32,000 nucleotides of DNA from Candidatus Korarchaeum cryptofilum OPF8 (GCF_000019605.1 NC_010482.1:270001-302000), one strand, 5' to 3'. Positions 12,423 to 20,594 are shown, counted from the first letter of the stretch. Made by a program: numbers and translations. The notes: generated by a model from the sequence alone, not told the origin.

Positions 12423-13061
12423 CTACTCTATCACATGCCCGCATATGACCTCTATCCCCAGTTCCTCAGCCCTATCGTAAGCCTCTCTATCAACGTTGAC
12501 TGAAACTAGGATTATCTTATCCGCACTTCTATTCAAGTACTTCTCAGCAGCTCTTGCCTTCATATAAAGAGCATCTATATGATCTAGCTCAGCTCTTGAC
12601 TTCACCTCAATTAAGTAGAGCTTATCATCCTTCACTGAGATATCTATATCCACCACCTTGCCCTTGATCCCCGTTATGCTTCCATCCCTATCCACGAATC
12701 TTAGTTTCTCTACTTTCCCGGGCTCAATCCCCCTCTTCTCTAGGGCCTCCTTGAATATCTCTAGCACCATTCTCTCGAGATCCTCCCCCCATCTCCTCCC
12801 CATGCTCCCTATGGTGACCTCTACTCTCATGCTGAGTTTGTCGAATTCCTCCCTCAGTTTATCCTGTCCCTCCCTGAGAGATTTTACCTCCTCCCAAAGC
12901 TTATTCTGATTCTCCCAAAGCTTTAACATACTCTCCTCCAACGAATCGAGCCTCTTCAATATCTCAGAAATTCCCAGGTAGCCAGCAACTGCATATCTGA
13001 ACTCTATGTCCTCATCCAGCGATCTCAGGAACCTCCTCTTCTCCTCGGCGGATAGAGCCAT
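12423..13061 (-). CDS. Coiled-coil protein with a C-terminal PD-(D/E)xK nuclease-fold-like domain (paralog A)
   Basis: 212 aa. The conserved N-terminus MALSAEEKRRFLRSL..EFRYAVAGYLGISEIL is shared with the neighbour. Central heptad-rich region. C-terminus VVDIDISVKDDKLYLIEVKS gives a D...E-x-K pattern. ATTTTTAAAT box ~25 nt upstream. From memory this resembles archaeal DUF3782/DUF1626 (PDDEXK_10) proteins. Not verified. Confidence 0.7.
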   Translation of the reverse strand: MALSAEEKRRFLRSLDEDIEFRYAVAGYLGISEILKRLDSLEESMLKLWENQNKLWEEVKSLREGQDKLREEFDKLSMRVEVTIGSMGRRWGEDLERMVLEIFKEALEKRGIEPGKVEKLRFVDRDGSITGIKGKVVDIDISVKDDKLYLIEVKSRAELDHIDALYMKARAAEKYLNRSADKIILVSVNVDREAYDRAEELGIEVICGHVIE

Positions 13062-13200: not shown

Positions 13201-13839
13201 CTAGAGATCCTCAATAACTCCTCTTATTTCCACTCCCAATTCCTTAGCTAGTTCAGCAGCTCCTTTGTCCACGAATCCACCTACTATGAGGAGCCTGGGC
13301 TTCACACCCTCTTTCTCCTCATATAAGCTCCCTATCCTGCTGATCTCGGCCACATCGCCCTTCGATACTCTCGACTTCACCTCCACGATCACATGCTCCC
13401 CATCCCTCACTAGGACATCGACATCCACTGTCGATGGATGTCCATAGACGAAGCCCCTCTCATCCCTCAAGAGCAACTTCGAGACCTTCGCAGCCCCGAG
13501 GACCTCCTCAACTACATACTTCATCCCCTCTCTGAAGGATTCTTCGGATATAACTCCAAATCTATGAGCAATGACCACGATTAAACGTCTGAAGGAAATC
13601 ATTTCCTCCTCAAGCCTCGCAACTCTCTCCTCCAATTCTAAAAACCTTTCCTCAAGCCTCGCAAACCTCTCTTCGAGTCTCGCAAATCTTTCCTCAAGAT
13701 TGACGATTCTCTCCTCAATGGAAGTTATCCTCTCCAATATCTCGCTGTAGCCAAGCATCCCCGCTACAGCGTACCTGAACTCCTCATCCTTCTTCAATGA
13801 CTCAAGGAACTTCCTCTTCTCCTCGGGAGAGAGCGTCAT
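13201..13839 (-). CDS. Coiled-coil protein with a C-terminal PD-(D/E)xK nuclease-fold-like domain (paralog B)
   Basis: Also exactly 212 aa. N-terminus MTLSPEEKRKFLESL..EFRYAVAGMLGYSEIL. Repeated LEERFARLEERFARLEERFLELEERVARLEEE. C-terminus VDVDVLVRDGEHVIVEVKS. TTTTAAATTAAAG box ~20-30 nt upstream. Confidence 0.7.
   Translation of the reverse strand: MTLSPEEKRKFLESLKKDEEFRYAVAGMLGYSEILERITSIEERIVNLEERFARLEERFARLEERFLELEERVARLEEEMISFRRLIVVIAHRFGVISEESFREGMKYVVEEVLGAAKVSKLLLRDERGFVYGHPSTVDVDVLVRDGEHVIVEVKSRVSKGDVAEISRIGSLYEEKEGVKPRLLIVGGFVDKGAAELAKELGVEIRGVIEDL
13608..13712 (-). repeat. Five tandem 21-nt units encoding heptad repeats (LEERFAR-type) inside paralog B
   Basis: Plus-strand units: cctcaagcctcgcaactctct, cctccaattctaaaaaccttt, cctcaagcctcgcaaacctct, cttcgagtctcgcaaatcttt, cctcaagattgacgattctct. 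They are contiguous and in phase. Confidence 0.8.
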
Positions 13840-13982: not shown

Positions 13983-15929
13983 ATGCTAGAGCTCCTCTCC
14001 CTGATCGAGGGATACTTGGATAAAGACGATAACAGCAGGCATAACGCAAACTTAATTTATTCCCTCCCTTCCCTAGCCGGGATCCTCTCTGGATATGTCC
14101 AGAGGGAATTCTACCTGAACAAAGTCCTTACGGAGGAACAGAGGCTCCTTCATGAGGAGGGGTGGTGGTATCATCATCAGATGGCTCAATTGAGCCCTTA
14201 CTGCGCTGGTTTCTCAGCTCTTGATATAATGAGGCACGGCCTTCAATCCAGAAACCCATTCAGCGTTAAGTCTAGGCCCCCTCGCCATCTAAGGACGTTC
14301 CTAGATCAAGCGGCTAACTTCATACTCAAGATGAGTCAAGAGGTATCGGGGGCTGTGGCCCTCAATGACCTAACTTCAGTCGCAGCCGCCTACGTCTGGT
14401 ACGAGAGGGAGATCTTGGGGAGGGAATTGAGATATGGAGACATTAAGAATGCCTTCCAATCTTTCGTTTACAATGTTAACTTGGATTTCAGGAGTGGGAA
14501 CTCCCCTTTCACGAACGTAACGATAACGATAGGTGGTCCGGCTCCAGCTCTAATGGATGAACCGGTCACGATAGGGATGAGCTTAAGCGAGCCCAAGAGA
14601 TTCTCAGATATACCCAGATCTTACTACGATGAGGTCAATAACGCCCTCATAGAGGTGATGTCCGAGGGTGATGCTGAGGGGAAGCCCTGGACCTTCCCCC
14701 TCATAACTCTCTACATAACTGAAGACTTCGATTGGGAATCCGAAGTCTTCGAGAGGCTCTTAGATTTAATGGATAGCTTCGGCGGTATATACTTCGAGAA
14801 CTACATCCCGAAGCCCTTCCTAGATGATAAGTGGAGGAGCAAGGTGGGTAACTTGGAGGTGAGGGACCCTAAGCTCCAAAGATCTTTCTGCTGCAGGTTC
14901 CAAGTGGATCTAAATGAGCTCCTTAGGGTCCCTCACACGGGTTCGATATTCGGGAACCTCTCGGGCGTCGGATCGATAGGAGTTATAACGCTGAATTTCA
15001 ACAGGCTCGCCTACTTGCACAGGGGTAACTTGAGCTCCCTGCTCGATCACCTCGATATATTGCTGGAGATGGCTAGAGATGCTCTCAACAGGAAGAGGGA
15101 CTTCATATTGAGGAATAAGCAGCTCTATCCGACCTTCTTCTACTACGTGGATGAATCCCTCAGGACCTACTTCAACACAATATCTTTGGGAGGTGGACAC
15201 GAGGGCTTAGTGAACTTCGGTGTGAAGAAGGGGATACTTTGTGAGGAGGGCTTGAGATTAGCGAAGCTAATATCTGAGCGCATACTTGAGAAGCTCAGGG
15301 AATTCCAAGAGGCAGATGGGGTCGCCTGGAACTTTGAATATGCCCCAATGGAGACGGCCGCTGGCTACCTAGCGAGGAAGGATCTTGAATTCGTTGAGAA
15401 CCTAAGGGAGGGCAGAGTTACGAGGATGTTCAGTGATATAGTGGATGCCCGGAAGGAAGCACCCGATATATATGTATCTGGATCGAGGGAGAGGCCCATC
15501 CTGACCTCAGGCTTTCAGCCTCCATTCAGCGAGGGCGATATCTCGAAGCTAGTCTATGTCTCAGCTCACACCCAGAATTACGCTACAGGTGGATCGGTCC
15601 TTCATACCTTCTTGGGGCAGAAGGTTAGCTCTGATACCAAGAAAGAGCTAGTGAGAAAAATTTTCAACAACTACCCGGTTAAGTATATGACGATAACTCC
15701 AACGCTGACTAGATGTAATAAGTGCGGTGCGAAATTCGTCGGGGAGTATTTAGAGTGCCCTAAGTGCGGGAGCGATGATACTACGATATACTCGAGGGTC
15801 GTCGGTTACTTCAGGCCGATAGCGAGGAGGGTTAAGAGGAGGGATCCCTCCAGGGGGATCTATGATGGTGAGGAGAACATATGGCAGGACTCCAGGAGAG
15901 CCGACTGGCTGACCTCCTCCCCGCCCTGA
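13983..15929 (+). CDS. nrdD: Anaerobic (class III) ribonucleoside-triphosphate reductase; the 3' end runs into the IS element
   Basis: Active-site FCCRFQ, TGGSVLHTFLG block, C-terminal Zn ribbon CNKCG...CPKCG, and glycyl-radical motif SRVVGYF. The TGA stop (15927-15929) lies in the loop of the IS terminal hairpin, so the last few codons are probably not native. Confidence 0.93.
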   Translation: MLELLSLIEGYLDKDDNSRHNANLIYSLPSLAGILSGYVQREFYLNKVLTEEQRLLHEEGWWYHHQMAQLSPYCAGFSALDIMRHGLQSRNPFSVKSRPPRHLRTFLDQAANFILKMSQEVSGAVALNDLTSVAAAYVWYEREILGRELRYGDIKNAFQSFVYNVNLDFRSGNSPFTNVTITIGGPAPALMDEPVTIGMSLSEPKRFSDIPRSYYDEVNNALIEVMSEGDAEGKPWTFPLITLYITEDFDWESEVFERLLDLMDSFGGIYFENYIPKPFLDDKWRSKVGNLEVRDPKLQRSFCCRFQVDLNELLRVPHTGSIFGNLSGVGSIGVITLNFNRLAYLHRGNLSSLLDHLDILLEMARDALNRKRDFILRNKQLYPTFFYYVDESLRTYFNTISLGGGHEGLVNFGVKKGILCEEGLRLAKLISERILEKLREFQEADGVAWNFEYAPMETAAGYLARKDLEFVENLREGRVTRMFSDIVDARKEAPDIYVSGSRERPILTSGFQPPFSEGDISKLVYVSAHTQNYATGGSVLHTFLGQKVSSDTKKELVRKIFNNYPVKYMTITPTLTRCNKCGAKFVGEYLECPKCGSDDTTIYSRVVGYFRPIARRVKRRDPSRGIYDGEENIWQDSRRADWLTSSPP

Positions 15930-16110
15930 AGGGCGAAGGGTTCCCTCAGGACGGCTCACGGGTTCGTGGTTTACCGCCTTCATCTTCATCACTTCACAGC
16001 TGGTAGGTGCGGTTCGCACCCACCCCGCTCCGCTCGTCCAGTGGTAGACCACGGGCTGGGTCTTCAGCCCGTTACCCCTATCCCTCGCCAAGAGTTGCCC
16101 CTCGCTCTTG
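15905..16110 (-). ncRNA. Predicted omega (re)RNA scaffold of the TnpB element
   Basis: Assigned by position: the 3' end of tnpB through to the RE. GC stems visible: GGTGCG-GTT-CGCACC (16006-16020), GTGG-TAGA-CCAC (16041-16052), GGGCTG-GGTCTT-CAGCCC (16053-16070), plus the RE hairpin. No covariance or expression evidence is available. Confidence 0.35.
15919..15936. repeat. RE-side subterminal hairpin repeat CCCCGCCCTGAAGGGCGA
   Basis: Identical to 17405-17422. 5-bp GC stem with a TGAA loop. Confidence 0.85.
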
Positions 16111-17224
16111 GCTCCTTGGGACTCAGGGATATGTAGGATGTTTATTGCCCCGTTTAGGTCTGCATTTATGATCTTCCCCATGCGGGGACACTTATAGAGA
16201 CCGCGTTTGACACGCCCGTTTTCATGGGCTTCCCCGCACAGGGAGCAACTTTTTGATGTATTTGGTTCTGCAACATCAATTACCCTAATTCCCAACTCCT
16301 CACCAATCTCCTTAAAACGCTTGATTACATAACCATAATTCCAAAAGTTCACTGTGAGTTTATTTCCATGATTCTTAGCGATGTCCTTTGGGTAACCCAC
16401 TACGACCTCGCTCACTCCCTTCTCCTTCAACTCTCCCATTATTTTCCTAATCATGCTGTTCAAGGCATGCTTCAGGAACCTCCTCCTCTTATCATAGAGT
16501 AGCTTAAGCCTCCTACTCGTTCTCTGCCCATGCCTAGCCAAGACCTTCTGGATCCCGCTCATCTTCTTACTGTAGCACTCGTATTGAGAGAGGACACCAC
16601 CGCCCTTGAAGATGTACCACGTGCCATCCTCAACATAGACAGTGGCTAAATTAACGATCCCCAAGTCTACGGAAGCCCTCAAGCTACCCTCAACTTTCGC
16701 CTCATCTTCAACCTCCACCGGGATGTGGGCATACCAACTTCTCCTAGCCTCATTATAAACTATCTCCAGCCTACCCTGCTTCCCGCACCACTTGAGTTCC
16801 CCTTTAAAACCCAAGGCTAGCTTGAAGTCCTTTCAAATAGATAGTCCTACCATCCTCATCCACTTCGTAGCGATCGTTCCTAATGATGATTATCAGCCTA
16901 TATTTTCCACTCCTATCCCTCCAGTAGCTCGGAGGTCTCGGCTTGAACCACTTTGGTAGCTTCCCCTCCCTCTTTTCCCCGATTAAGGAGAAGAAGCTCC
17001 TCCATGCTTCAGCGTTCTTCCTGGCAACCTGCTGTGCGTTGACCTTCAGCACGCGTTTGTACTTCTCGTATACCTCCTTTCCGGTCTTTAAGAAATCGAC
17101 CCTCTCCCCCTTCTTGAACTGTTGCATCCTCAGCCAGTTCACTTCGTTCCAACACTTCACTGTAACGATGCCCAGCTTCCTCAGCTTCTCATGTGTTTCC
17201 TTGTCCACCACCAGCTTGACTACA

Positions 17225-17368
17225 TTAGTCCTTCGCATGCCTACCCCTCTTGTACTCCTCAATGAGTCTCTTGATCACATCATCATAGGTTTCCCTAGGG
17301 TGAATCTTCAGCCTCTTCAACTCCTCCTTAGTATCCTTCCCAATCCTAATCGGCTCAGTAGCAGGCAT
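17225..17368 (-). CDS. 47-aa ribbon-helix-helix-like protein (VapB/DUF217-type pattern) inside the IS, overlapping the tnpB start
   Basis: Not in the ORF track because it is too short. Translation is MPATEPIRIGKDTKEELKRLKIHPRETYDDVIKRLIEEYKRGRHAKD. The layout is a short beta strand (IRIG) followed by two helices. The ATG at 17368 lies ~25 nt downstream of a TATA-like box. The stop overlaps the tnpB ATG by 14 nt (ATGCGAAGGACTAA). Confidence 0.55.
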   Translation of the reverse strand: MPATEPIRIGKDTKEELKRLKIHPRETYDDVIKRLIEEYKRGRHAKD

Positions 17369-17392
17369 ACCACAGAAGTAGCGAACAGTAGC

Positions 17393-17404
17393 TTAAAAAC
17401 TTTA
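17393..17404 (-). promoter_or_regulatory. TATA-like box (minus strand TAAAGTTTTTAA) for the RHH-tnpB transcript
   Basis: AT-rich box between the LE hairpin and the RHH ATG. Spacing of ~25 nt fits a leaderless transcript. Confidence 0.45.
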
Positions 17405-17422
17405 CCCCGCCCTGAAGGGCGA
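17405..17422. repeat. LE-side subterminal hairpin repeat CCCCGCCCTGAAGGGCGA
   Basis: Identical to 15919-15936 and in the same orientation. Confidence 0.85.
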
Positions 17423-17427
17423 GGCTT

Positions 17428-17931
17428 GGTCGATGTCACCACAGGGAGCTAGTTGAGGGGAAATTCGAGGAGGTCCCACTAGAAGAGCTCCTCTGGGAGC
17501 TTGAGGGGAACTCCTTGATAGATATGCTGATCATAAGCGGTGGTGAGCCTACAATACATGGAGATAGCTTGCTCGAACTGATAAAGATATTGAGGATCAG
17601 GAGAGGAGATTTGCCAATTAGAGTCGACACTAATGGATCTCTACCGAAAGTAATGAAGATCATTGCCGATTATATCGATGGATTCGCTTTAGATGTGAAA
17701 GCGCCTCCTCTCCGAAGGGAAATGTATGAGAGGATTATAAGGAGGGAATTCGATCTCGAGAGCTTCATGGAAGCAGTTGAGATAGCTTCAGGGCTTCCGT
17801 ACACTATATTCAGGACTGTGAGGTACCCCTGGCTCAGGGAGGAGGATATAGGGGAAATAAGGGAATTCCTATCGAGGTACGGGGGAGGGAAGCCCCACAT
17901 AATTAATCCTTACTTCGAGCCGGAGCATTGA
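17428..17931 (+). pseudogene. nrdG: Anaerobic RNR activating enzyme (radical SAM), 5'-truncated by the IS
   Basis: The frame is open from 17416 and reads ..GRCHHRELVEGKFEEVPLEELL...IDMLIISGGEPTIHG...VDTNG. CHHRELV looks like the third Cys of CxxxCxxCHNPEL. The first two Cys and the N-terminus are absent. An in-frame TGA sits at 17413-17415 in the LE hairpin loop. Confidence 0.8.
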
Positions 17932-17959: not shown

Positions 17960-19858
17960 TTAAGGTAATTTGATACCATTCGCCTCTAGATCGAGGATCA
18001 CATCCTCCAGTCCGAGCTCCATCAACTTCCCCCTGCTCGGTATCCCCCTCTCCCGATCCCATCCCCTGACCTCGTAGTACTCATCCAGCATCCTATCAAG
18101 CTCCATCAGATGCCCGGCTGACGGTCCTCTAGCTATCCTCTCCTCCAAGAACCTCTTTGGCAAGCGATCATCAGCTCTAGTCACCCCCTCCCTGATATTG
18201 AAGGCCCTCTCCAAGTTCACTATCCTCTCCCCAATATCCCTGACTTCCTCCGGCGTGAAGTCCAAGCCGGTGACGGCTCCCATTAGCTTAGCAACTCTCT
18301 CATAATTCAAGAGGTCCATGTTCTCAGCCAAATTCTTGCATACCTCTAGGGAATCGACTAGAGCGCATATGTTCTCATAGTAAGCCACTAATTTCCCCTT
18401 CCCCCTCACCCCGAGCCTGAGAGTGGCCTCCCCCTCCCCGAACATAGCCTCGCCTATCTTGGGATCGTCGCTCAACTCTATGAATGGCTCCGATCTCAGA
18501 TGATCAGCCCCTCTGCTCGCTACAGCGAAGCCCAATCCATATCCCTTCAGTCCTCTAGGATCTACTTGAATCATCTCAAGACCTTTGACATGCATAGCGA
18601 TCTCTCTTCCCTTCCCAAGCCTCTCAGAAGCTTTAGCAACACCATCAGCTAAGATATCGCCGAAGCCCTCCCTCCCAGCTATCATCTCTATGAGCTTCAT
18701 CACTGAATCCATATTCCCCCAGTTCAGCTCGAGCCCGATCTCCTCCTTCTTAAGGGCGCCACTCTCATATAGCTCCATAGCCCAGGATATGACTTCGCTT
18801 GTCGATATCACATCCATACCTAGGTCGTTCAATAAGGATATGGCCTTCAATCCCGCGTTCAAATCGCTATTCCCTATCCTCGCGGTCATGCCAGCTAGAG
18901 CTTCGTACTCAGGACCCTCTCCCATCAGGCCGGAGTACTCACCATCCTTAACTAAGAAGAACCTGCTGCAGTTGACGATGCAGGAGAAGCACGACATACT
19001 CTTAACATTGTACTTCAGGGCGAGGTACTCCCCGCTCACCTCGAAGGCGTAATCTAAAACCGGCTCCTTGAAGTGATTTCCCGGAAGTATACCGAGCCTA
19101 TTCGCTGCCATTAATATTCTAGAAGTTCCCATTATCCTCCTGGGCCAGAACTGCGGATGGGCATAGGTTTCCTCCTCTATCTCATCCACTATCCTCTCGA
19201 ATTCCGCCGGTCTAGCTACTTCCACATAACCATCTCCCCTGACAGCGATCGCTTTCACTTTCTTAGATGCCATTAGAGCTCCCATCCCGGTCCTGGCAGC
19301 TGGCCTATAGAGGTTGAAGAAGATCCCAGAGTATCTAACTAGTTTCTCAGCTGCAGGCCCAATTAGAGCTATTTGAGCTCTCCAATCCCCAAGCTCCCTG
19401 AGTATCTCGCTGTAAGCATCCGAGATCCTCCTCCCCCATATGCCGCTCGCATCCCTGAGCTCCACCTCGCCATCCGATATGTAAATATAGACGGGCCTCT
19501 CGCTCCTACCCTCTAATATTATGGAATCATAGCCAGCGTATTTCATCTCAGCGGAGAAATGCCCTCCCACATTGGAATCTCCGATCAACCCGGTCTGAGG
19601 AGATTTCCCGGATACGTTGAGTCTAGAACCCAGGGGGAAGCCGGTGCCCGCCAGGGGACCCGTTGATATGTAGAGCTTGTTCATGGGGCTCAGGGGGTCA
19701 GCTCCCCTCACCTCGCTGTAGAGCATCCTCATGTTCATCCCCCTCCCCCCTATGAAGCCCCTTATCACTTCCCTGCTCAGCGGTTCCACCTTGATGCTTC
19801 CATCAGTCAAATTTATCCTCAGTAGCTTTCCAGCGTATCCGTACAGCTTACTCGACAT
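17960..19858 (-). CDS. aor: Tungsten-type aldehyde:ferredoxin oxidoreductase (AOR family)
   Basis: N-terminus GYAGKLLRINLTDGSIKVEPL, Fe-S ligands CFSCIVNC, and a later LVDSLEVC block. 632 aa. Confidence 0.92.
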   Translation of the reverse strand: MSSKLYGYAGKLLRINLTDGSIKVEPLSREVIRGFIGGRGMNMRMLYSEVRGADPLSPMNKLYISTGPLAGTGFPLGSRLNVSGKSPQTGLIGDSNVGGHFSAEMKYAGYDSIILEGRSERPVYIYISDGEVELRDASGIWGRRISDAYSEILRELGDWRAQIALIGPAAEKLVRYSGIFFNLYRPAARTGMGALMASKKVKAIAVRGDGYVEVARPAEFERIVDEIEEETYAHPQFWPRRIMGTSRILMAANRLGILPGNHFKEPVLDYAFEVSGEYLALKYNVKSMSCFSCIVNCSRFFLVKDGEYSGLMGEGPEYEALAGMTARIGNSDLNAGLKAISLLNDLGMDVISTSEVISWAMELYESGALKKEEIGLELNWGNMDSVMKLIEMIAGREGFGDILADGVAKASERLGKGREIAMHVKGLEMIQVDPRGLKGYGLGFAVASRGADHLRSEPFIELSDDPKIGEAMFGEGEATLRLGVRGKGKLVAYYENICALVDSLEVCKNLAENMDLLNYERVAKLMGAVTGLDFTPEEVRDIGERIVNLERAFNIREGVTRADDRLPKRFLEERIARGPSAGHLMELDRMLDEYYEVRGWDRERGIPSRGKLMELGLEDVILDLEANGIKLP

Positions 19859-20363
19859 CGAGGCCCCACCTCCCAGCCTGCTCCGCGAATTCTCTCAGGG
19901 CGTAGATGTAAGCGGGGTCAGTTATTTCGAGCGCCCTAACCTCAAACCTTTGGAATGTCAGAGCGTTCATAGGGCATCTTTTAACGCATTCAGGCTCTCC
20001 ACCGCAGAGATCACAGACGATGGGGACTCCCTTAGTTTTGTGCATCCTAATTGCCCCATATGGACAGCTATTAATACAATTGCCGCAACTCGAGCAAGTT
20101 TCCTCGAAAATAACTATGGCTCCTATATCATTCCTCCGGATGGAGCCCGTTGGACAGGCCTCCATGCAGGGAGCCGGCTCACAGAACCTGCAGATAACTG
20201 GATAGTCGAGTCCGATCCTCACATCCCTGACCACAGTCACCCTCGAGAGGGATGAGCTGAAGACACCCTCGTGTTTGTATGAGCACCACATCTCGCAATA
20301 CCTGCATCCAGAGCACCTACTCGCATCGACTCTTATAGCCGGCATCCCAGCTCGAGCTTTCAT
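19848..20363 (-). CDS. Polyferredoxin with four 4Fe-4S binding motifs, probable AOR electron-transfer partner
   Basis: Motifs CSGCRYCEMWC, CRFCEPAPCMEACP, CSSCGNCINSCP and CDLCGGEPECVKRCP. The gene overlaps the AOR start by 11 nt. Confidence 0.9.
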   Translation of the reverse strand: MKARAGMPAIRVDASRCSGCRYCEMWCSYKHEGVFSSSLSRVTVVRDVRIGLDYPVICRFCEPAPCMEACPTGSIRRNDIGAIVIFEETCSSCGNCINSCPYGAIRMHKTKGVPIVCDLCGGEPECVKRCPMNALTFQRFEVRALEITDPAYIYALREFAEQAGRWGLDVE

Positions 20364-20594
20364 GGGCTCTGAAGGGATACTGGAGGATTTAATCGTTTTG
20401 TTCGATCAGGGGAGAGCTGAGCTTTGAGTTCACGCGGGGGTCGGAATCGCATCATATGAAGCTTTCGTGAGATATCAAATTAAAAAATAAATCTTAATCC
20501 TAATTTTCTTATGATTTTTAACATCATATGCCTCTATAACTCAAAAATCTGGGAGGGAAGCTCCGGAGCTCTCGCTATGTTACGATCTGTAACC

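Follow-up and report, generated by a model that had tools for sequence, protein, structure and literature searches.

Insertion sequences of the IS200/IS605 family, among them IS608, ISDra2 and the tnpB-only IS1341 group, are mobile elements bounded by subterminal hairpins of the same orientation, without inverted repeats and without target-site duplication. They insert 3' of a fixed motif of 4-5 nt (TTAC in IS608, TTGAT in ISDra2), their tnpB gene is read from the left end towards the right end, a guide-RNA scaffold extends over the 3' end of tnpB and the right end, and their autonomous members encode the Y1 transposase TnpA. Here we describe an element of this family from a 32-kb stretch of the genome of Candidatus Korarchaeum cryptofilum OPF8 (NC_010482.1:270001-302000; the whole stretch is called the window hereafter), where it occupies 1,526 bp on the minus strand (15909-17434) between truncated copies of nrdD and nrdG, the genes of the anaerobic ribonucleotide reductase and its activase. 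The element shares the hairpins, the insertion behind a fixed motif (here TGAC), the direction of tnpB and the position of the predicted guide-RNA scaffold with the described members of the family, and some of its relatives encode Y1 TnpA. It differs from them in that it has no tnpA but a ribbon-helix-helix (RHH) gene in its place, in that its left and right hairpins are identical over 18 nt, and in that its tnpB frame has no stop codon inside the element.

Small RHH proteins have been associated with TnpB in two other settings. In bacterial IS605 elements, the RHH protein Arc represses the transposon promoter (Moon et al., bioRxiv 2026, 10.64898/2026.09.24.754181). The element described here likewise holds a small RHH gene beside its putative promoter, but the Arc-containing elements belong to bacteria and include tnpA, with arc and tnpA often oriented divergently to tnpB, whereas here the host is archaeal, tnpA is missing, and the RHH gene runs in the same direction as tnpB, which it overlaps; a repressor role would be assigned by analogy. 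In archaea, an association of RHH/MazE proteins with TnpB has been proposed to form a non-mobile toxin-antitoxin pair, in a clade marked by an aspartate-to-histidine change at RuvC-III (Altae-Tran et al. 2023, PMC10691335). Our element has an archaeal host in common with that clade; in contrast to it, the RuvC-III aspartate is kept (NADLNGAINI), the change is a glutamate-to-glycine replacement at RuvC-II, and the pair lies inside a mobile element. Because the aspartate is kept and the element is plainly mobile, it is not, on sequence grounds, a member of the RHH/MazE-TnpB clade. A literature search on DUF7557, the domain matched by the RHH protein, and on Korarchaeum TnpB found nothing.

Extent and ends of the element

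A previous sequence-only reading of the window had proposed that two identical 18-nt direct repeats bracketing a minus-strand tnpB, each folding as CGCCC-TGAA-GGGCG, are the subterminal hairpins of an IS200/IS605 element with limits at 15905-17433. The window contains exactly two copies of the 18-mer, CCCCGCCCTGAAGGGCGA (plus strand, 15919-15936 and 17405-17422), with no third one even at 3 mismatches, and none of 100 shuffles gave two matches; both repeats contain CGCCC-TGAA-GGGCG. The gene between them, on the minus strand, matches Pfam OrfB_IS605 (1.5e-33) and Cas12f1-like_TNB (5.7e-14), and its product matches NCBIfam guided_TnpB (149.8 bits, cutoff 100).

Comparison loci (numbered from L001) allowed the ends to be placed to the nucleotide. 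Ten other copies of the element, nine of them 98-99.9% identical to it and one 88%, match it from position 1 (or 3) through to position 1526, beyond which similarity ceases, and their flanks are unrelated; near-identical copies are present at at least seven unrelated loci. At least 22 contigs encode a small protein identical to the 47-aa protein of the element, and the ten copies come from this set. These breakpoints, together with nrdD-nrdG loci that are empty of the element (homology to L001 stops at 15908 and resumes at 17433-17435), set the limits at 15909-17434, within 4 nt of those first proposed.

The right end of every family copy finishes in GGAGGAGGTCAG, and similarity is gone directly after it. 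In the relatives that reach this end, it reads ...TCGCCCTTCAGGGCGGGGAGGAGGTCAG or is 1-2 substitutions or a small indel away, and the tail is conserved in about 20 relatives whose flanks differ immediately beyond. On the other side, TGAC directly precedes the left end at all seven distinct loci of the near-identical group (as ATGAC, GTGAC or TTGAC), and the left end of most diverged copies also follows TGAC, with a few one-base variants. In the window this target motif (TAM) is 5'-GTGAC, with the core TGAC, at 17435-17439 on the minus strand; it belongs to the host nrdG and directly adjoins the left end on its 5' side. An alignment of the left ends from different loci, together with DNA folding, delimits a left end (17369-17434, minus strand) with a 13-nt tip and a hairpin core at 17408-17421, and the right end (15909-15948, minus strand) consists of a hairpin core at 15922-15935 and a 13-nt tail ending in GGAGGAGGTCAG.

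Each hairpin lies 13 nt inside its tip, in the same orientation, in all copies and relatives, and there is no copy whose ends exclude the hairpins. On the tnpB-sense strand, G.T wobbles lengthen both stems to 8-9 bp. The left-end hairpin on that strand has a 9-bp stem with a G.T wobble (-7.7 kcal/mol, z = -2.2), while the right-end hairpin is no better than shuffles by folding energy (z = -0.7), so that the evidence for the hairpins is their conservation across copies and not their folding energy. Neither terminal inverted repeats nor a target-site duplication were found in the element, and the flanks of its two sides are unrelated. Structurally, it is a member of the IS200/IS605 family. Its miniature derivatives, and the presence of one frameshifted version at two different loci, are further signs of recent mobility. 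We consider it probable, at roughly 85%, that 15909-17434 is a recently active, non-autonomous copy of an IS200/IS605 insertion sequence.

The nrdD-nrdG locus and the missing 159 bp

The closest NrdD proteins are found in metagenomes and in Candidatus Korarchaeum, and the orthologous locus is present, empty of the element, on three contigs: L001, with 98% DNA identity, and L002 and L003, with 87%. In all three, a 661-aa nrdD and a 200-aa nrdG overlap by ATGA. By blastn, window positions 14407-15908 correspond to L001 1-1502 and 17433-18903 to L001 1660-3129, the match from 17433 being accounted for by the first two bases of the element, which are AT in all copies. The window lacks L001 1503-1661, and the empty sites of L001-L003 exceed the joined flanks by these same 159 bp. 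Written on the element strand, with slashes at the boundaries of the segment, the ancestral sequence is ...TTGTGAC / ATGCTATG...(159 nt)...CCCCTAGTGAC / CCAGTCGG...; the element exactly replaces the segment between two cleavage-type positions, and TGAC bounds both sides. The claim that the element is lodged in the nrdD-nrdG junction therefore stands as to its place, since the orthologous loci lack the 1.5-kb segment and have an intact nrdG in position, but the event cost the host 159 bp, which the element has replaced.

Both genes are damaged by the replacement. NrdD orthologues end in ...ADWVTRGIIGEEEIIAFTRDL; the copy in the window (13983-15929, plus strand; Pfam NRDD 3.3e-95) retains 642 native residues, has lost 18 (VTRGIIGEEEIIAFTRDL), and has gained LTSSPP and a stop from the right end, the TGA stop at 15927-15929 lying inside the right-end hairpin loop. 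The nrdG remnant (17435-17931, plus strand), which is what is left of a radical-SAM gene, has lost its start and 35 codons, including C29 and C33 of CNYNCIAC (CxxxCxxC), so that only the third cysteine is left, whereas the intact NrdG of L001 has C29, C33 and C36. NCBIfam NrdG2 covers only profile positions 33-182 of 193 in the remnant, and the first in-frame start is a TTG at 17515. The corresponding TGA in the left-end hairpin loop (17413-17415) is in frame with the remnant and closes its frame upstream. All this bears out the sequence-only reading, which had placed both stop codons in the hairpin loops and had the element supply the C-terminus of NrdD; its further statement that the element separates the reductase from its activase describes the position correctly but understates the effect, as the activase itself has been destroyed through the loss of its start and two cysteines. 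On this sequence evidence, the NrdG activase is dead in this lineage. An identical truncated nrdD was found in another data set (L034), on a contig that breaks 30 nt into the right end of the element. In the intact nrdG, TGTCACAACA occurs twice (L001 1577-1586 and 1660-1669).

An RHH gene in place of tnpA

The element had been described as carrying tnpB only. This did not hold: a second gene (17225-17368, minus strand), overlapping the start of tnpB by 14 nt, encodes a 47-aa RHH protein of the Arc/VapB-like kind, with Pfam matches to DUF7557 (2.6e-07) and VAPB_antitox (1.9e-06). It was found in 18 distinct versions, with a median ratio of nonsynonymous to synonymous substitution rates (dN/dS) of 0.12 (66 pairs among 13 versions of 47 codons), a value that indicates purifying selection.

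A TATA-like TTTTTAAG (17392-17399, minus strand) within the left end is a putative promoter element; it lies about 27 nt ahead of the RHH ATG, and this spacing suggests that the RHH transcript is leaderless. Also within the left end, ahead of the RHH ATG on the same strand, is a conserved GCTACT-N4-GCTACT block, a candidate operator, which is present only in copies bearing the RHH gene. By analogy with Arc in bacterial IS605 elements, repression of the left-end promoter is the most likely role of the RHH protein.

The RHH gene sits where relatives carry Y1 tnpA. The C-terminus of the RHH protein (..VIKRLIEEYKRG; window 17225-17260) resembles the C-terminus of the relatives' TnpA (..TIRKYIEEQWGKG; L006 3960-4000), and the two occupy the same position just before tnpB begins; possibly the RHH gene took the place of tnpA and retained its last codons. 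That no Y1 TnpA is encoded in the window, as had been noted, was borne out by tblastn, and Y1_Tnp (Pfam, 1.5e-42) is present in relatives of the same left-end design (L006, L007 and L015). The lack of tnpA is compatible with membership in the family, since a non-autonomous member is expected to look like this. Because relatives with the same end design encode Y1 TnpA, we infer that the element moves as single-stranded DNA by means of a Y1 TnpA supplied in trans.

A split tnpB with a rearranged RuvC site

The minus-strand tnpB is present, but its reading frame is not intact in this copy, being split by a one-nucleotide insertion. An extra A at 16833 (TTGAAAGGA compared with TTGAAGGA in other copies) shifts the frame, leaving a 5' part of residues 1-144 that runs into a stop codon after the frameshift (16807-17238, minus strand) and a 3' part (16113-16832, minus strand). 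The extra A is found in the window, L037 and L039, and is absent from seven of the ten other copies. L038 and L039 represent the same locus and differ at the extra A, and the window, a different locus, has it; since the window and L039 share the insertion and L038 is without it, the frameshifted version has either moved or been copied between loci. The open tnpB frame continues beyond the element to 15750, as there is no stop inside the element in this lineage; in relatives whose right-end loop is TTTA, tnpB stops at the loop TAG.

The 3' part holds the RuvC-I aspartate (SVDLGI), the RuvC-III aspartate (NADLNGAINI) and a degenerate zinc finger. At the RuvC-II position there is a glycine (VVVGYPKDI), which aligns with the RuvC-II catalytic glutamate of a solved Cas12f structure, and an alternative glutamate is found in AEPNTS. 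Relatives conserve both aspartates (RuvC-I and RuvC-III), the GYP and, about 44 residues further on, a glutamate in (A/D)E(P/S)(N/Y)TS. The very same glutamate-to-glycine replacement, with a compensating glutamate, is found in large TnpB clades that have been described as rearranged RuvC-II clades (the RIIr branches; PMC10691335, Altae-Tran et al. 2023), in which the conserved alternative glutamate likewise lies downstream, just before the zinc-finger region; unlike them, most members of the TnpB group studied here lack the fourth zinc-finger cysteine. The RuvC site matches these published clades, and a TnpB with this arrangement may be active as a nuclease.

A predicted guide RNA matching the intact nrdD allele

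Over the last ~220 nt of the element, nucleotide conservation goes beyond what the protein frame requires. An alignment of 26 sequences, which replaced a first one that had included an unrelated L014 stretch and the diverged L033 and had given a poorer structure, yielded a 53-pair consensus in which 98.4% of cells are standard-paired. Compensatory changes occur in 36 cells, compared with 8.4 in shuffles, and the covariation score, computed on the same alignment from which the structure was predicted, is 0.174 compared with 0.122 in shuffles, with 0 of 500 shuffles reaching 0.174. Pairing falls to 40-51% in slid controls, and in one helix six of seven pairs show compensatory changes. An Rfam scan of the window, this region included, matched no family, and a tRNA scan of the window found nothing. 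The region (15909-16128, minus strand), which overlaps the 3' end of tnpB and reaches the right end, is a predicted, covarying scaffold of a guide RNA (omega RNA).

The 20 nt directly beyond the right end, CCAGTCGGCTCTCCTGGAGT (15889-15908, minus strand), would be the guide segment; they are antisense to the 3' end of nrdD, and in the intact allele of L001 the same 20 nt are preceded by GTGAC. In characterised systems, the motif required by TnpB is the target motif of the transposon. If the same is true here, the guide of this copy would be aimed at the intact nrdD allele. TnpB made by intact copies, loaded with the omega RNA, would then cut TGAC followed by CCAGTCGGCTC..., the sequence of that allele, and such cutting would favour the retention or spread of the disrupted one.

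How the deletion may have arisen

We hypothesize that the element first inserted at the TGAC within the cysteine motif of nrdG, and that the 159 bp beside its right end were lost afterwards, either by strand transfer or by recombination with a second nearby copy. By the first route, the right-end 3' OH would be joined, in a transposase-type reaction, to a downstream site cleaved after TGAC; the chemistry would be that of normal integration, with the flank taking the place of the left end. We weight strand transfer and recombination after two insertions about equally.

A second case comes from three loci with one left flank in common, L036, L042/L043 and L044. L042 and L043, two contigs of 1.63 Mb, are without 814 bp that adjoin the right end in L036, a segment that ends in ...ATCATGAC, again at a TGAC. 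Since L036 keeps the 814 bp, the deletion in L042/L043 was on the right-end side. L036 itself fits a simple insertion at its own locus, for which no empty site was found. Further deletions were sought by comparing the right flanks of L037 and L044 with 10-kb extensions of sister loci. L037/L066 and L038-L039/L067-L068 have a common left flank over 10 kb and unrelated right flanks over 10 kb, reflecting either a larger rearrangement or a right-end deletion of more than 10 kb. The comparison showed L044 to be recombinant: its 5' 1,370 nt are identical to the L036 copy, its 3' 150 nt and right flank are identical to L063, a different, 85%-identical copy, and the crossover lies in the conserved omega RNA region.

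From the two deletions it is tempting, though at present doubtful, to generalize that the family makes right-end-adjacent deletions that end exactly after the next TGAC, with the omega RNA re-armed in the process and TnpB able to drive the deletion allele. Re-arming would be automatic, because the new right flank follows TGAC in unrearranged chromosomes. A limited literature check, IS608 work included, found no report of target-bounded adjacent deletions by IS608-type elements.

The competing account with the best standing, credible although on balance we do not favour it, has two insertions in the same orientation at both TGAC sites (nrdD codon 644 and nrdG codon 36), followed by recombination between the 1.5-kb copies, with the loss of one copy and of the intervening DNA. 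Each boundary is a valid target site, and the L044 chimera of the L036 and L063 copies demonstrates that copies do recombine; yet two insertions within 159 bp would be needed here, and again within 814 bp at the L036/L042 locus, and none of 70 loci is a contig with a tandem pair. It is also possible that the element inserted at the nrdD TGAC and that a deletion from GTCAC to GTCAC then took place on the left-end side, which would give the same product in the window. Slippage by microhomology, with the deletion starting at the right-end tip, is unlikely: the tip (GGTCAG) shares nothing with the distal boundary, and no such microhomology was found in either deletion case.

An assembly artefact, in which two tandem copies flanking the 159 bp were collapsed by the assembler, seems improbable to us. 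A true tandem pair would hold the junctions right end / ATGCTATGCAG... (insertion at the nrdG site) and ...left end / GTCACTAGGGG (insertion at the nrdD site). The L034 contig, with its identical truncated nrdD, does break within the right end as contigs do at repeats, but the analogous 814-bp case stands on two independent 1.63-Mb contigs, where a collapse is unlikely, and the window passes both junctions without ambiguity.

With an origin by insertion at nrdG and later loss of the adjoining 159 bp as our preferred account of this non-autonomous copy, several points have to be set against it. The ~200 kb of Korarchaeum-like loci examined yielded no Y1 tnpA, and in a search for the cognate TnpA the hits with a species label were mostly from Sulfolobales and none was labelled Korarchaeum, which bears on the source of the transposase. 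GTCAC, which is GTGAC read on the other strand, is present three times within 165 bp at the nrdD-nrdG junction of L001; this makes the junction unusually rich in target motifs, and a TGAC at the deletion boundary is less improbable here than one would expect from how often the motif occurs across the genome. The final structure does not reveal whether insertion or deletion came first, and a pair of tandem copies separated by 159 bp could be merged into it by a short-read assembler.

It is very improbable that the RHH-tnpB pair is a fixed, non-mobile module of the toxin-antitoxin kind and not a transposon. The small protein does match VapB-type antitoxin models, and the published hypothesis covers archaeal RHH-TnpB pairs (PMC10691335). 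However, copies 98-99.9% identical with identical ends are found at at least seven unrelated loci while orthologous sites are empty, miniature derivatives exist, relatives carry tnpA, and the published clade has the RuvC-III change to histidine where the aspartate is kept here. An addiction role of the pair inside a mobile element is possible. A clean junction insertion without loss of target, or a reading of the direct and identical 18-nt repeats as a target duplication or as attachment sites of another element, is refuted by the 159 bp that the intact loci hold and by the 18-mers themselves, which every copy has at 13 nt from its ends and which empty sites do not contain.

Relatives, derivatives and neighbouring genes

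With the repaired TnpB as query, a search that covered one genome per species gave 30 relatives, with 38-89% identity over the best-matching segment and 62-83% for long matches. Their records are labelled Methanomethylicota, Acidilobus, Caldivirga, Vulcanisaeta, Thermocladium, Nitrososphaeria, Caldarchaeales, Marsarchaeota, Archaeoglobi and Methanodesulfokora; those at 62-83% carry the labels Methanomethylicota, Nitrososphaeria, Archaeoglobi, Marsarchaeota and, within the Thermoproteota, Acidilobus, Caldivirga, Vulcanisaeta and Thermocladium, and are mostly from thermophilic lineages. The occurrence of TnpB at such identity in many archaeal lineages points to wide horizontal spread. Relatives of the same end design have three layouts: Y1 tnpA with tnpB (L006, L007, L015 and the decayed L020); the RHH gene with tnpB (the window, L004, L009, L011, L012, L018, L019, L021, L022 and most metagenome copies); and tnpB alone (L005, which keeps a 22-residue TnpA remnant, L008 and L010).

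Miniature derivatives comparable to the PATE/MITE-like miniatures of IS200/IS605 elements were seen in related loci, not in the window. Those of about 295 bp (L062:5060-5354, and also in L050 and L053) follow a TTGAC target motif and retain only positions 1-71 of the left end and a part of the omega RNA and right end (1302-1526). L014 holds a remnant of about 52 nt (2820-2871), TGAC / AAAAGAACAACAAGTCTTGCCCCTTCTAGGGTGGGGAGGAGGTTAG, composed of the left-end tip, a single hairpin and the right-end tail; such a remnant is just what would result if the two identical hairpins of one element recombined. Directly upstream of one copy (L069 6133-9943, equivalent to L040) is an IS607-type pair of a serine recombinase and a TnpB-like gene, and another truncated TnpB-like gene is also present there, forming a cluster of RNA-guided-nuclease transposons.

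Around nrdDG, the aldehyde:ferredoxin oxidoreductase gene and the small 4Fe-4S gene that adjoin nrdG are intact in the window (17960-20363). L001 (2187-3129) is without the ~1.5 kb at window 18904-20414, which leaves a 309-aa C-terminal stub of the oxidoreductase gene, and in L002 (12625-13794) and L003 this gene is split into three open reading frames, a pattern of decay opposite to that of nrdDG. Just upstream of nrdD lie two tandem 212-aa paralogues with DUF3782 and PDDEXK_10 domains (12423-13061 and 13201-13839, minus strand), of which L002 has only one.

Conclusions

The insertion of a mobile element that disrupts genes is an ordinary kind of event, here with a few instructive details, and its interest rests on the target-bounded deletions and on the mobility of RHH-tnpB units. 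The Korarchaeota are seen to harbour a recently active IS200/IS605 element that can be delimited precisely, whose ends and target motif are defined and whose predicted guide-RNA scaffold is supported by covariation, and in one lineage the activase of the anaerobic ribonucleotide reductase has been inactivated. An RHH-tnpB pair can be part of a mobile element and is not solely a fixed module resembling a toxin-antitoxin system. The two natural deletions bounded by the target motif make a specific transposase reaction testable; if the family does produce such deletions and re-arm its omega RNA by them, TnpB could spread a dead nrdDG locus through a population.

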